Shown: in pieces, positions 207 through 15,230 of the stretch
Layout: each line of letters begins with the position of its first letter
Position numbering within the stretch: position 1 is the stretch's first letter
Virus genome (UHGV): UHGV-0171543
From: a virus
Direction: 5' to 3' (one strand)
DNA: 19,658 nucleotides
Notes under the pieces: model-generated
Database searches by the model: none
What the model was told of the DNA's origin: nothing
Seen by the model: only the letters and a program-made list of their open reading frames with translations
Made by a program: the position numbers and the translations under genes

Positions 207-700
207 TGCCGCCCCCACAAACAGACTTCACGCTCAATCTCACGGCGAGTCATCAGCCCTTTCCATTGCTTACCGCCAGCATATGTCCAGCGACGTAGCT
301 GATCACATGCGCCTTTGATATCGCCCTGGTTTATTTTGCGAAGAAGCGTCGATGTTCTGAAATTTCCAGCACCAACGTTGTAAACGAACGAGTAAAGAGC
401 GCCGCGCGTTGTTTCCGGTATATCGACTTTGATGTACGGGTTAATTTGTCTGGCGACAGTGGCAAGGTCTTTATTCAGGAGGGCTTTGCATTCTGCTTCG
501 GTATACGTTTTACCGAGCATAATGTCTTTTCCGGTGTGCCCGTAACATACAGTCCATACACCAACGATATCTTTATATGGTATGTAGCTGACGCCTTCCA
601 GACCATCGTTACCACTTGGGCCAGTGATTAACACAGATGCTATAGCAATAGCCCCGCCACCAATAGCCGCAGCAACGGCTTTTCGTAATGATGGAGGCAT
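203..700 (-). CDS. R: SAR endolysin (phage 21 R-type lysozyme with N-terminal signal-anchor-release domain)
   Basis: 165-aa ORF with a Gly/Ala-rich weakly hydrophobic N-terminus ([20 protein letters not shown]) followed by a lysozyme-like domain. Recalled as matching phage 21 / DLP12 SAR endolysin. Its start overlaps the holin stop. Confidence 0.9.
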
Positions 701-915
701 TATTCACCTCTCGCAGCCTTTCTTCTGTCTTCTCTGATTTTGAAGTACAGATTTGTCAGATAGGTGAGAAAGCCCAACACAAGGCTTCCAAGCACTCCAA
801 TCGCAGCCCACTGTGATGGACTGACCTGATCCAACCACTGTAAAAACCAGTATCCCGCACTACCAGCGGATGTTCCGTAAGCAATGCCAGTTGAGATTTT
901 GTCCATTGATTTCAT
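700..915 (-). CDS. S: Pinholin (S21-type class II holin)
   Basis: 71-aa ORF with two TM segments and a charged C-terminus ([13 protein letters not shown]), beginning MKSMDK (dual-start motif). Recalled as matching phage 21 S / DLP12 EssD. Sits immediately upstream of R. Confidence 0.9.
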
Positions 916-1033
916 AGCAACGCCTCCGCCAGTAACGGATTGCGTAGTTCTTATATTGGGAAGGGGAAAAAAGAAGGCCGCAGCATAACTATCACTGATG
1001 AATTCAGAATAGCCAGTGGCTACGGCTCAGTAA

Positions 1034-1109
1034 TGGTGCTGGTTAACGGACTTGAACCGCTACCCATTCGCTTACAAGGCGACTGCTCTACCATTGGAGC
1101 TAAACCAGC
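1034..1109 (-). tRNA. tRNA, predicted Thr (anticodon UGU)
   Basis: Hand-folded 76-nt cloverleaf on the minus strand: perfect 7-bp acceptor stem (GCTGGTT/AACCAGC), D-arm GCTC-CAATGGTA-GAGC, anticodon loop CTTGTAA, T-arm AGCGG-TTCAAGT-CCGTT, encoded CCA. One G-A mismatch at the top of the anticodon stem. Confidence 0.6.
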
Positions 1110-1114
1110 ATATT

Positions 1115-1189
1115 TGGAGGGGCAGCGTGGACTCGAACCACGATAAGAAGGTTAACGGCCTTCCGTAATGACCTTTATACGACTGACCC
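1115..1189 (-). tRNA. tRNA-like element, possibly degenerate (Asn GUU-like anticodon loop with C at position 33)
   Basis: 75-nt minus-strand sequence with a canonical T-arm (CGTGG-TTCGAGT-CCACG), encoded CCA and a 5-bp anticodon stem with loop CCGTTAA. The acceptor stem has one mismatch (GGGTCAG vs CTGCCCC) and the D-arm is short and atypical. Lies 5 nt from the preceding tRNA. Confidence 0.35.
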
Positions 1190-1252
1190 AAATAAAAAAA
1201 GCCACCGTTGCAACTTAAGAGTCACTAACGGCAGCTTACCTTCTAATTATGG

Positions 1253-1771
1253 CTAAATGGATAATTGCATGTCAAGACTTTTAACAGCAATATGTTTAAC
1301 TTTCTCAACACGTTTACGCATTTTGAAAGCATTTTGCATTGGTTGGTACAAAACAAATAATGATGCTTTCAGGATGTCGTCAATTTCATTTCTACAGGTT
1401 GCCAGTGAAGGTTTTCTCCATCCCTCGCCACCACGTCCACACATCTTGCGTGGCTTTGCAGTCGCGTGATAGTAGGATGCAATTGCTCGCTTAGATGAAC
1501 CATGAGCGTAGTAGCTGAGGAGGATGCCAAAGGCTTTCTTGTCAATGCACATGACGGAATCAACGACCTGAGAAATCAACATTCCATCATCATCATTGCA
1601 CATTGGCCTTGTCATAACTCTTCCCGGTTCTACGCTCTCCATGAACTTCGCTATTACGCTGCTCATGCGCTTTTCCAGACGACCTGAATAAACCCATGCG
1701 CCCCACAGTTCAAGCCAGCCATTCAGCCACTCATGCTGTTCTTTGGTGAGGTTTAGTTCTCTTATGCTCAT
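1253..1771 (-). CDS. Putative late-gene antiterminator (Q-like)
   Basis: 172-aa ORF between NinH and the lysis cassette, the Q position in lambdoid phages. Contains several Cys residues (MCND...MCID...MCGR...TCRN) consistent with a zinc-binding antiterminator. Assignment is by synteny, not strong sequence recall. Confidence 0.5.
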   Translation of the reverse strand: MSIRELNLTKEQHEWLNGWLELWGAWVYSGRLEKRMSSVIAKFMESVEPGRVMTRPMCNDDDGMLISQVVDSVMCIDKKAFGILLSYYAHGSSKRAIASYYHATAKPRKMCGRGGEGWRKPSLATCRNEIDDILKASLFVLYQPMQNAFKMRKRVEKVKHIAVKSLDMQLSI

Positions 1772-10044: not shown

Positions 10045-10626
10045 TTACTTGTTTTTGCCATGCTTATCCTGAGCGATAAGTTCATCCATAAGACTGTCTT
10101 TCTTCCCAGCAAACCTAATGTAGCACTCATTTCTATAGCGTTCCGGGATAACAAAACGGTCGATTTCAGGATATCCAGTAGCAGAAGGTATCCGAATAAG
10201 AAGCCCTTTTTCGAGCAATGAGATTGCTTCAGGGCTTCCCTTTTCTGTCTTTAGCTGGTTATTCGCGGCTACAGCGAATGCCAAATACGCTCTTTCTCCA
10301 AGAGTTAACGAATCAAACAAATCTTGCACATATTTTTCTTCTTTAGATTTGCGCTTCTGAGCAGCGGATACCTCAATTCTTTCAGTCACAGCGTGATAAG
10401 CGGAATTAACAACACCGTTAAGCACATAGCTAACGCAGAACAACAGGATGTAATACATCCAATAATGAGGAAGGATTTCTGGATTATGCAGGTTTATCCA
10501 TTCTTTTACGCTTACCGGCATAACAATAATCAATATGATCAGGATGATTAGCATATGAATCAACTGTTTAAGTGTCATTCCTTGCAGGAAAAAATGCATT
10601 AGTTCCTGCCACCATGAGTTGTTCAT
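10045..10626 (-). CDS. sieB: Superinfection exclusion protein B
   Basis: 193-aa ORF opposite in orientation to N, with an N-terminal hydrophobic segment (LIHMLIILIILIIVMPV). Matches lambda SieB as recalled. Confidence 0.8.
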   Translation of the reverse strand: MNNSWWQELMHFFLQGMTLKQLIHMLIILIILIIVMPVSVKEWINLHNPEILPHYWMYYILLFCVSYVLNGVVNSAYHAVTERIEVSAAQKRKSKEEKYVQDLFDSLTLGERAYLAFAVAANNQLKTEKGSPEAISLLEKGLLIRIPSATGYPEIDRFVIPERYRNECYIRFAGKKDSLMDELIAQDKHGKNK

Positions 10627-13252: not shown

Positions 13253-13960
13253 ATGGATTTGAATAAATTCGATGAGCCATTCAGCCCTGAAGATATCGAA
13301 TGGCGAATACAGCAAAGCGGTAAAACACGCGATGGCAAAGTGTGGGCTATGGTGCTGGCTTATGTCACGAACCGGGCAATCATGAAACGCCTGGACGATG
13401 TTTGCGGCAAAGCAGGATGGCGCAATGAATACCGCGATATTCCCAACAACGGCGGCGTTGAATGCGGCATATCAATCAGGATTGATTCCGAATGGGTAAC
13501 CAAATGGGATGCTGCTGAAAACACGCAGGTAGAAGCCGTCAAAGGTGGTCGTTCCGGTGCAATGAAGCGCGCTGCCGTTCAGTGGGGAATCGGTCGGTAT
13601 CTGTATAACCTTGAGGAAGGTTTCGCACAAACATCTCTCGATAAAAAGCAGGGATGGCACAGGGCAAAACTCAAGGATGGAACAGGATTTTACTGGCTCC
13701 CTCCATCGCTGCCGGGATGGGCAATCCCAACATCAGATAACAAACCATCACCAGAAAATACCAACCAGAAATCTCCATCGGTTGACTGCGAACAAATCCT
13801 GAAAGACTTCAGCGATTATGCGTCAACAGAAACTGACAAGAAAAAACTCATCGAGCGTTATCAGCGTGACTGGCAATTAATGGCTGGTAACGAGGAGGCG
13901 CAGGCTAAATGCGTTCAGGTAATGAACATCAGAGTTAACGAACTAAAACAGGCGGCATAA
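13253..13960 (+). CDS. Rad52-family single-strand annealing protein (Sak-like core) with Erf-like C-terminal tail
   Basis: 235-aa ORF with GAGGTGA RBS. Rad52/Sak-type motif GGVECGISIRIDSEW...AVKGGRSGAMKRAAVQWGIGRYLYNLEE. The C-terminal segment ETDKKKLIERYQRDWQL...CVQVMNIRVNELKQAA resembles the P22 Erf C-terminus as recalled. Confidence 0.8.
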   Translation: MDLNKFDEPFSPEDIEWRIQQSGKTRDGKVWAMVLAYVTNRAIMKRLDDVCGKAGWRNEYRDIPNNGGVECGISIRIDSEWVTKWDAAENTQVEAVKGGRSGAMKRAAVQWGIGRYLYNLEEGFAQTSLDKKQGWHRAKLKDGTGFYWLPPSLPGWAIPTSDNKPSPENTNQKSPSVDCEQILKDFSDYASTETDKKKLIERYQRDWQLMAGNEEAQAKCVQVMNIRVNELKQAA

Positions 13961-14434
13961 ATGGGAAGTAGAGGCGTAAATAAGGTGATCATTATTGGTC
14001 GCCTTGGGCATGATCCAGAAATCAGATATTCACCATCAGGAACGGCATTTGCAAACCTTACAGTTGCTACGTCAGAACAATGGCGTGATAAGCAAACTGG
14101 AGAGCAAAAGGAGCAGACGGAGTGGCACCGCGTGGTAATGAGCGGGAAACTGGCAGAAATTGCCAGCGAATATCTGCGAAAAGGCTCTGAGGTTTATCTT
14201 GAAGGCAAATTGCGGACAAGAAAATGGCAGGATCAAAGCGGACAGGATCGGTTCACTACCGAAGTTATCGTGGGCGTTGGTGGAACCATGCAAATGCTTG
14301 GTGGCAAGCAAGGAGGAAATGAACAGTCTTCACCTCAGCGAAATAACGGTCAGCAACAAAGACAGCAACCTCAGCAGCAAGGGAATCACAGCGAACCACC
14401 TATGAACTTCGACGATTCGGATATTCCGTTCTAG
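13961..14434 (+). CDS. ssb: Single-stranded DNA-binding protein
   Basis: 157-aa ORF starting at the ATG immediately after the annealing-protein stop. OB-fold-like N-terminal region, Gly/Gln-rich linker, acidic C-terminal tail DDSDIPF. Confidence 0.9.
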
Positions 14435-14443
14435 GAGCTGAAT

Positions 14444-14923
14444 ATGAAAATCTGCTCAAGATGCCATCAACAGAAGGAAGAAAGGGACTTTCAAATCAGA
14501 AGAGCATCCAGAGATGGATTAACTGCCGCTTGCCGGGCTTGCCTGGCTGAATACGACAAAGAGCGCGCGGGATTGCCACATCGAGTATCAGCAAGGAGAG
14601 AATATCAATCATCGGAACGCGGCAGAGAACGGTGTAACGCAGCCAAAAAGCGGTTCATTCAGAGCAACCCATGGAAAAGAAAAGCCCACATCATCGTGGG
14701 TAATTTTTTGCGCGACGGTAAGCTAATCCGACCACCACAATGTGAGTGCTGCGGATCAGAATGTAAACCACAGGCGCACCACTGCGACTACAGCAAACCA
14801 ACCGATGTGATGTGGCTCTGCAAGTCATGTCATGTCGAGTGGCACAAACATAACAAACCTATCTACCCAGACGAGGAGCCAGTAACTCTCCCCTTCCCTC
14901 GTCACGCTATTCACGCAATTTAA
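14444..14923 (+). CDS. Putative HNH endonuclease with N-terminal zinc ribbon
   Basis: 159-aa ORF. N-terminal CSRCH...CRAC and C-terminal CECCGSEC...AHHCDYSKPTDVMWLCKSCHVEWH fit an HNH (His-Asn-His) nuclease motif with Cys ligands. Confidence 0.6.
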   Translation: MKICSRCHQQKEERDFQIRRASRDGLTAACRACLAEYDKERAGLPHRVSARREYQSSERGRERCNAAKKRFIQSNPWKRKAHIIVGNFLRDGKLIRPPQCECCGSECKPQAHHCDYSKPTDVMWLCKSCHVEWHKHNKPIYPDEEPVTLPFPRHAIHAI

Positions 14924-14936
14924 TCAGGAGAAAATC

Positions 14937-15230
14937 ATGCCAGCGCCTCTGTATGGTGCGGACGACGCGCGCCGCTGTTCCGGCAATTCCGTATCGGAGG
15001 TGCTGGATAAATTCAGAAAAAACTACGATCGGATAATGTCGCTACCGCAGGAAACGAAAGAGGAAAAGGAATTTCGCCACTGTATATGGCTTGCAGAGAA
15101 AGAAGAACGCGAGCGAATTTACCAGACATCAATCCGACCATTCCGCAAAGCCACATATACCCACTTCCCTGAAATTGACCCGCGCCTGCGTAATTACCGC
15201 TCACGCTATGGTGCTATCAGTAATGACTGA
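14937..15230 (+). CDS. Hypothetical protein
   Basis: 97-aa ORF with GGAGAAAA upstream, in the same operon. No recognised motif. Confidence 0.5.

Follow-up and report, generated by a model that had tools for sequence, protein, structure and literature searches.

The two tRNA genes at 1034..1189 of the window (the whole stretch of 19,658 nucleotides of the virus genome UHGV-0171543 that was analysed) are the late-operon tRNA-Asn/tRNA-Thr pair of phage 21, Sf6 and SfI, an ordinary cassette that is already known and described. The overall explanation that we favor, with a probability of about three in four, is that of a phage 21/Sf6-type cassette in which the tRNA-Thr acts against Old, the tRNA-Asn serves as a spare, and the particular tRNA-Asn copy of the window is a rare weakened allele.

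The tRNA cassette in the late operon

Using ARAGORN, two tRNA genes were found, both on the minus strand and separated by a 5-nt spacer. Coordinates and lengths agreed exactly with the first-pass annotation, which had described a 76-nt tRNA with the anticodon UGU, 5 nt of spacing and a second tRNA-like element. Both elements were also accepted by the Rfam model RF00005 (61.5 bits, E 2e-11 for tRNA-Thr; 48.8 bits, E 6e-8 for tRNA-Asn), with scores well above the gathering score of 29, and neither was rejected by the tRNA software. As both genes are located on the minus strand, tRNA-Asn, formerly counted as the second element, is the one transcribed first. The features of the region are listed in window coordinates.

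1253..1771, minus strand: Q, late-gene antiterminator of the Sf6/phage L type, 172 aa (ORF and protein matches)
1246..1275, minus strand: late promoter pR' (TTGACA, 18-nt spacer, CATAAT), overlapping the end of Q
1190..1237, minus strand: intrinsic terminator tR', a hairpin (1237..1199) followed by U7AU3
1189..1115, minus strand: tRNA-Asn(GUU), 75 nt with encoded CCA (ARAGORN; Rfam RF00005)
1110..1114, minus strand: spacer between tRNA-Asn and tRNA-Thr, AAUAU (majority allele AACAU)
1109..1034, minus strand: tRNA-Thr(UGU), 76 nt with encoded CCA (ARAGORN; Rfam RF00005)
967..1026, minus strand: long imperfect hairpin, then CUUCUUUUUU, in the leader between tRNA-Thr and S
700..915, minus strand: S21 pinholin/antiholin S, 71 aa, identical to phage 21 S in 71/71 residues
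203..700, minus strand: R21-type SAR endolysin R, 165 aa, identical to phage 21 R in 160/165 residues

The proposed placement of the pair between Q (1771..1253) and S (915..700) was confirmed and corresponds to the late-operon leader of a lambdoid phage. No minus-strand ORF of at least 50 aa was found between the tRNA genes and S, in agreement with the earlier remark that no toxin or other cargo is carried there. The Q protein of the window shared 167/172 residues with gp59 of Sf6, 168/172 with Q of phage L and 136/172 with Q21; in RefSeq its relatives are labelled 'antiterminator Q family protein'. A promoter scan found 11/12 consensus matches for pR', and the sequence is identical to the region of Sf6 that is annotated as late promoter/qut. 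By homology, the Q-binding/qut region would be located in and just downstream of pR'. The terminator tR' ends one base ahead of position 1 of tRNA-Asn. Its fold energy of -21.5 kcal/mol (z = -4.7) was reached by none of 200 shuffled sequences, and no variation of the hairpin was seen between the window, Sf6, phage 21 and phage L; in the records of Sf6 and phage 21 it is labelled a terminator. A simple terminator scan found no terminator within 850-1400; it missed tR' because of the long structured loop of the hairpin, given that loops of 3-8 nt were the limit of the scan. The 118-nt leader between tRNA-Thr and S (1033..916) is structured as well (-36.4 kcal/mol, z = -3.25). The sequence of its hairpin at 967..1026 is mostly kept in phage 21 and Sf6, with the U-run missing in Sf6, and it may form a second terminator or a processing site.

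Since pR', qut and tR' are annotated in Sf6 and phage 21 and the tR' hairpin is invariant, both tRNAs are regarded as part of the Q-dependent late transcript. Transcription would start at pR' and, without Q, stop at tR' directly before tRNA-Asn. With Q, readthrough of both tRNA genes into the S21/R21 lysis genes would take place. Both tRNAs are probably excised from the late transcript, presumably through RNase P and 3' processing by the host. CCA is already encoded, and both would be made late in the lytic cycle.

The pair is widespread. It is annotated at the same site in phage 21, Sf6, SfI, BTP1, SPN9CC, Oslo, Bas106 and RefSeq E. coli genomes. Searching with a 261-nt region, matches were found in 90 phage records, with Q adjoining tRNA-Asn and tRNA-Thr features, and the best phage records showed 97.7% identity to the window over the 261 nt. 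The region was matched, partly or fully, in 831 of 5,426 complete E. coli genomes; 364 of the 5,426 carried the tRNA-Asn gene, and the pair was present in 58 phage records. When Sf6, phage 21 and phage L were aligned to the window, the order was the same throughout, namely Q/pR'/tR', tRNA-Asn, 5-nt spacer, tRNA-Thr and lysis genes. Compared to the type genes of phage 21 and Sf6, tRNA-Thr of the window is identical (76/76 nt), and tRNA-Asn agrees in 72/75 nt. The pair was listed for Sf6, ST64T, PS3 and phage 21 in the SfI paper, whose authors noted an ACA bias relative to the host and called the significance of tRNA-Asn unclear (PMC3636060). Similar remarks were made for phage L, with 24/25 Asn codons of the major capsid gene being AAC (PMC8022706). 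The homologues to compare are consequently not ileZ/argN/argO of Stx phages, which had been suggested as the comparison set, but this Asn-Thr pair as annotated in GenBank and RefSeq.

The tRNA-Asn family and the allele of the window

An acceptor-stem mismatch, a short D arm and C33 had been reported for tRNA-Asn, and all three were found. In the acceptor stem U4 is opposed to C69 (window 1186 and 1122). The D stem consists of the pairs G10-C25, U11-A24 and A12-U23, then U13 opposite U22. Position 33 is C (window 1157) within the loop C32-C33-G34-U35-U36-A37-A38. A further deviation, absent from the first-pass annotation, is the discriminator, U73 (window 1118) in place of the G of the family. 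The variable loop is 4 nt long. The bases for tertiary contacts are kept (U8, A14, the D-loop GG, GGUUCGAGUCC) along with the encoded CCA, and the same is true for tRNA-Thr. Position 9 is an unusual C, constant across the collected copies, with the search patterns fixing this base. Relative to Sf6, phage 21 and phage L there are three differences in tRNA-Asn, U33C, U69C and G73U, and one in the spacer, next to an identical tRNA-Thr.

In order to separate traits of the family from traits of this copy, relatives were collected from IMG/VR and GenBank. Listed were 234 copies (60 distinct), all sharing the D arm, from the E. coli/Salmonella lambdoid clade, a Klebsiella lambdoid clade, T4-like phages and jumbo Erwinia phages. 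Among these 234 listed copies the anticodon was GUU in 233, G73 was found in 225 and an encoded CCA in 178. Position 33 was U in 231, C in two and A in one of the listed copies. At 4:69, U-U was found in 176 listed copies (the lambdoid clades), a U-A, U-G or C-G pair in 48 and U-C in nine, and the mismatch was retained even next to compensatory changes in the pairs 6:67 and 7:66. Among the lambdoid members this acceptor mismatch is the usual state and, like the short D arm, not a sign of decay. The three-pair D stem was common to all members collected, from very different phages, a constancy which is partly given by construction, as the D arm was the search key for relatives. U13 opposite U22 and C9 were considered as independently conserved features and rejected, the D arm being part of every search pattern.

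For 47 distinct tRNA-Asn sequences, 92.6% of the cells of the cloverleaf were paired, versus 35-52% in controls with slid partners. Compensatory changes on both sides were observed in 15 of 21 pairs of these 47 sequences, and the covariation score of 0.63 (0.17 in shuffles) was reached by none of 500 shuffles. In the anticodon stem 4/5 pairs showed compensatory change and 100% were paired. Nucleotide diversity within the lambdoid clade was 0.008 for tRNA-Asn, 0.012 for tRNA-Thr and 0.041 for the downstream leader; these values refer to 91 sequences with 55 haplotypes, since due to mosaicism a restriction to homologous flanks on both sides would leave 7. Relatives of tRNA-Asn were also found within tRNA clusters of T4-like and jumbo phages that have no Q/tR' context. 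As judged from these sequence comparisons, the family is a selected, decoding-type tRNA-Asn of a phage lineage, and neither a pseudo-tRNA nor a bare structural element.

These data bear directly on the view that the element does not decode and has a structural or regulatory task, for example as an RNase P entry site that splits the terminated leader from the late mRNA. It can point to the position of the element, which abuts the U-tract of tR', to the non-Watson-Crick 4:69 opposition conserved in the lambdoid clade (U-U in 176/234 listed copies) and to the fact that the role of this tRNA has been called unclear (PMC3636060). However, a processing signal needs neither GUU (233/234) nor A37, G73 (225/234) or CCA (178/234 of the listed copies), the anticodon stem covaries as described, the same lineage occurs in T4-like and jumbo-phage tRNA clusters without Q/tR', and PGAP, ARAGORN and Rfam all class the element as a tRNA. 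We regard a non-decoding element as highly improbable. Three options had been offered for it originally: a divergent functional tRNA, a regulatory RNA or a pseudo-tRNA. The first holds for the family, based on covariation and the GUU anticodon; the regulatory RNA found no support; the pseudo-tRNA fails for the family and could at most describe this single allele, damaged recently. Of the features listed as non-canonical, the mismatch recurs in the lambdoid members and the short D arm in all members collected, while C33 is indeed a rare allele of the lineage.

The exact allele of the window was not found in the 364 E. coli genomes with the gene (best match 85/86) or in the 58 phage records (best 83/86), and C33 itself was absent from these 364 genomes. 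Nor did searches of 185,579 GTDB species genomes and of JGI metagenome contigs find the exact C33 allele. With a C33-specific pattern, the combination C33, C69 and U73 was found in one IMG/VR contig, 3300045988_095810 (here L240). The nearest relatives, E. coli VCSW7 and K71-77, have identical tRNA-Asn, spacer and tRNA-Thr save for U33. The C69/U73 allele is itself rare and was seen in three contigs of IMG/VR and in three or four genomes of E. coli. C33 was added later on this C69/U73 background and is not a family trait; the allele of the window would have been derived in two steps, C69 with U73 and then C33. An independent C33 was observed on a different allele in another of the collected copies (L156), with extra changes in both tRNAs, one of them pair-breaking, and lower Rfam scores (46.3 and 53.2 bits), and A33 arose once, in one contig.

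L240 and the window are perfectly identical over ~678-1617 (~940 nt), with flanks diverged by 2-4% and a different nin region. That L240 could be the window's own contig was considered and rejected, because identity was 97.9% over 1.78 kb, the mismatches were clustered outside of ~678-1617 and the nin region differed. A sequencing or assembly error as the source of C33 would fit the one base by which the window departs here from its nearest E. coli relatives; against it, the same base is present in L240, where the ~940 identical nt are embedded in flanks that differ by 2-4%. An error is unlikely, and we give it hardly any credence. We are aware of the fact that a common metagenome assembly behind both contigs, if there was one, could have put the same reads into the shared block. 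As a separate observation, the sharing of the C33 block with a contig of diverged flanks indicates that the allele persisted or spread, which a strongly deleterious allele might not.

Several effects of C33 and U73 can be predicted. In the ViennaRNA ensemble, a model that ignores tertiary contacts and modifications, C33 lowered the probability of the anticodon stem from 0.68 to 0.05, because a competing hairpin (24-27 with 32-35) gains G26-C33 in place of G26-U33; in the same folding model the strict cloverleaf of the majority allele lies 2.5 kcal/mol above the MFE. The cost of C33 in the Rfam model was 4.8 bits. U33 hardly ever varies and is needed for the functional architecture of elongator tRNAs; C33 has been described for exceptions only, eukaryotic initiators among them (PMC5041475). 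The tRNA-Thr of the window has U33, the tRNA-Asn lacks it. UGU in the loop has been described as the minimal E. coli TGT site (Nakanishi 1994, as cited in PMC1635277); as tRNA-Asn of the window is devoid of U33-G34-U35, Q34 should be lost. C33 is also a reported anti-determinant for t6A37, the TsaDBE rule being U36A37A38 without C33. By its sequence, the loop is predicted to be a substrate neither for TGT (Q34) nor for TsaDBE (t6A37). The identity set of E. coli AsnRS comprises G73 and the anticodon (PMC9976931). The copy of the window has the anticodon G34 U35 U36 and is without the discriminator G73, and as G73 is an identity base, U73 should reduce charging. GlyRS and CysRS use U73. That another synthetase might mischarge the U73 allele was considered, but the GUU anticodon would not offer the determinants of GlyRS or CysRS. 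Most likely, the tRNA-Asn copy of the window is a weakened or inactive gene, and it would be carried as a weakened or dead decoder beside an intact tRNA-Thr.

A different view of the same allele takes C33, together with U73, as an adaptive escape from an anticodon-loop nuclease or toxin by way of missing Q34 and t6A37, with decoding still adequate. Within the lambdoid clade position 33 was hit three times independently (C in window/L240, C in L156, one A) among ten segregating sites, the allele is found on two contigs with diverged flanks, and phage tRNAs are reported to evade nucleases by substitutions in the anticodon loop or stem (PMC10264068; PMC12409363). Yet the allele is extremely rare, with 2 contigs versus hundreds with U33 and none of the 5,426 E. 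coli genomes, elongator tRNAs structurally require U33 (PMC5041475), and AriB and P2-OLD cut the stem and not the loop. The extra pair-breaking changes in both tRNAs of L156 look like decay, and the statistic of three hits is weak. Evasion of colicin E5 as the reason for C33 was rejected, as E5 cuts the tRNA-Asn loop and accepts either pyrimidine at position 33 (PMC1635277). In sum, adaptive escape is quite improbable. A more specific version, with tRNA-Asn as the second half of a two-tRNA anti-Toprim cassette and C33/U73 as a selected, hypomodified escape or decoy form (no Q34/t6A37) that would evade or titrate a further, loop-directed nuclease, is likewise very improbable. Recurrence at position 33 (C33 of L156, one A33) was noted as an observation by itself, which would allow for tolerance or selection rather than damage.

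P2 Old, AriB and codon supply

P2 Old, a Toprim nuclease, causes cell death by cutting off the anticodon arm of the host's tRNA-ThrU(UGU), and in the P2-lambda system Old is activated by inhibition of RecBCD through lambda Gam. Phage tRNA-Thr(UGU) genes rescue cells from P2 Old; tRNAThr21 is also protective and resists P2-OLD cleavage by a shorter anticodon stem and C28U/G42A (all Govande et al., NAR 2025, PMC12445682). The tRNA-Thr of the window has the anticodon stem GUCGC/GCGAA with G27 opposite A43, UCG at 28-30 and CGA at 40-42. In UGU anticodon, shortened stem and altered CNG it shows, at the level of sequence, the same resistance features as tRNAThr21. It would decode ACA once ThrU, the only UGU tRNA of the host, is destroyed by P2 Old, and would itself resist Old because of the shortened anticodon stem (G27 opposite A43) and the loss of the paired CNG motif. 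It would in addition serve an ACA-rich phage genome. The phage of the window also encodes Abc2, an anti-RecBCD protein.

For tRNA-Asn, the AriB nuclease of PARIS offers a comparable situation. AriB cuts the host tRNAs Lys(UUU) and Thr(UGU) and, with lower efficiency, Asn(GUU) at 40|41, beside a UAAU motif; it depletes host Asn(GUU), and all three T5 tRNAs were needed for full rescue (Belukhina et al., PMC12409363). Host Asn(GUU) was also compared with ThrU in P2-OLD kinetics, where ThrU was cut fastest (Govande et al., PMC12445682). Host asnT carries CGG at 28-30 and CCG at 40-42, a CNG pair, and UAAUC|C around the cleavage site. The phage stem GAAGG/CCUUC has AAG/CUU and UAACC|U, neither the CNG pair nor the AriB UAAU motif. 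In tRNA-Thr, UAAGC|G replaces the UAAUC|A of the host. Both phage tRNAs carry substitutions at or around the 40|41 cut site and have lost U36AAU39, a pattern that would fit resistance to AriB. By analogy with tRNA-Thr, the normal tRNA-Asn gene may be a nuclease-resistant spare; it would be the companion spare for host tRNA-Asn(GUU), a secondary target of AriB (PARIS). As the cassette is without tRNA-Lys(UUU), the primary AriB target, it could not defeat the characterised PARIS alone. Looking at the family as a whole, the Klebsiella subclade stem GCAGG/CCUGC retains a paired CNG (CAG/CUG), and many non-lambdoid members have kept UAAUCA. Both observations speak against tRNA-Asn as a spare family-wide.

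The cassette has also been seen in terms of codon usage, and codon supplementation as the main or only function, for ACA in Thr codons and for AAC in Asn codons of highly expressed virion genes, with the oddities as neutral drift, is possible although clearly the less favored explanation. In the 29 ORFs of the window ACA made up 31% of the Thr codons (14.7 per 1000), an ACA bias was noted for SfI (PMC3636060), and AAC dominated in the major capsid gene of phage L (24/25 Asn codons, PMC8022706). Nevertheless, Asn codon usage in the ORFs of the window was unbiased, with 54% AAC, and to the SfI authors the significance of tRNA-Asn was unclear. Supplementation alone would not select the anticodon-stem changes of tRNAThr21 that underlie its anti-nuclease phenotype. 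The Asn tRNA, moreover, is not scarce in E. coli, where four tRNA-Asn genes are present. Supplementation and an anti-nuclease role are not exclusive: supplementation is partial and compatible for tRNA-Thr and fails for tRNA-Asn. Loss of ThrU would be more harmful due to the ACA-rich genes.

Comparison with known systems

The pair as such adds nothing new, since hundreds of genomes have it in their annotation and the counter-defence role of its Thr member is published. With UGU and GUU the cassette carries the anticodons of the secondary AriB targets, and UGU is also that of the main P2-OLD target. Neither phage tRNA has kept the stem motifs used by AriB and P2-OLD, which provides a lead on the tRNA-Asn of phage 21, Sf6 and SfI, for long a gene without explanation. 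The pair of alleles C33/U73 versus U33/G73 represents a natural, nearly isogenic contrast for the in vivo contribution of U33 and G73.

In Stx phages, tRNA genes are located at the equivalent place, following Q/pR'/tR' and preceding the cargo and lysis genes. Their ileZ-argN-argO set is set apart by isoacceptor, Ile and Arg there versus Asn and Thr here, and no toxin cargo is found here. Host asnT and thrU share with the phage genes the anticodons, the loops CUGUUAA and CUUGUAA (majority alleles), the T-loop and the encoded CCA, while acceptor, D and anticodon stems differ, and the paired CNG and UAAUC motifs, targets of P2-OLD and AriB, are carried by the host stems and not by those of the phage genes. 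The Thr/Asn tRNAs of T5 have the same pair of anticodons and, like those of the window, substitutions at 39 and 41 versus the host, flanking the AriB cut at 40|41. However, they are unrelated in sequence to the pair of the window, the T5 tRNA-Asn has 78 nt and a different body, and the cassette of the window is without tRNA-Lys. The closest systems are phage 21 (CPT_21_64 for Asn and CPT_21_65 for Thr, OL657228), Sf6 (AF547987), SfI, BTP1 and SPN9CC, which have the same order as the window. Compared to phage 21, the Q/qut specificity region of the window is of the Sf6/L type and not of the phage 21 type. Between tRNAThr21 and tRNA-Thr of the window there is no sequence difference: in both U28-A42 replaces C28-G42 and G27 is opposite A43.

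Hairpin upstream of the lysis genes

The interval between the tRNA-Thr gene and the start of S contains one further structured element:

967-1026, minus strand: long imperfect hairpin, followed by CUUCUUUUUU

Its fold z-score was -3.25. A U-run following this leader hairpin is found in phage 21, while Sf6 has none. The hairpin may act as a second terminator or as a processing site, bracketing the tRNAs.

Early-left operon and P2 Old

Two further regions of the window were noted:

13253-15230, plus strand: early-left operon encoding an Erf-like annealing protein, an SSB, an endonuclease and the anti-RecBCD protein Abc2
10045-10626, minus strand: ORF of PHROG 1301 ("superinfection exclusion; inhibits SieB")

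Abc2 was assigned by a match to PHROG 656, with an E-value of 7.7e-55. The trigger of P2 Old, as described for the P2-lambda system, is the inhibition of RecBCD (PMC12445682).

Variant tRNA alleles in related loci

Deviating forms were observed at the Thr position. In Salmonella phage L (L003 1651-1722) an annotated tRNA-Leu(UAA) takes the place of the Thr gene; both its 5' and 3' acceptor ends are common with the Thr gene and its body is rearranged. ARAGORN made no call for this annotated gene. A chimeric Thr allele, composed of the phage 5' third and a body similar to host thrU (AACTGACTTGTAATCATCAGG...), was present in at least 9 copies in IMG/VR loci among the matches listed from the first scan (L004-L123). 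Its anticodon stem has UCAUC on the 3' side and is thereby shortened here too.

For the Asn gene, C33 had arisen independently in L156 (IMGVR_UViG_643692035_000004, 1439-1594), on a different allele (T20, G29). In the adjoining Thr gene of this locus G41U disrupts the C29-G41 pair, and the Rfam scores of both tRNAs are reduced (46.3 and 53.2 bits). One IMG/VR member of the alignment of relatives with the same D arm carries the anticodon GUC (loop UUGUCUA), which is of the Asp type, while the rest of the lineage is Asn(GUU).

Comparison with Klebsiella phages

In Klebsiella phage ST16-OXA48phi5.2 (L126 1501-1820) the slot between Q and holin is occupied by four consecutive tRNAs (Asn, Phe, Thr and Arg(UCU)), with the Asn and Thr genes related to those of the window. 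Klebsiella phage 2b LV-2017 (L127 2396-2470) possesses a second tRNA-Asn(GUU), whose acceptor stem GGGUCAG/CUGCCCC, with U4 opposite C69, matches that of the window allele, although its body is unrelated. The occurrence of this stem on an unrelated body suggests that the form with U4 opposite C69 is not restricted to a decaying copy.
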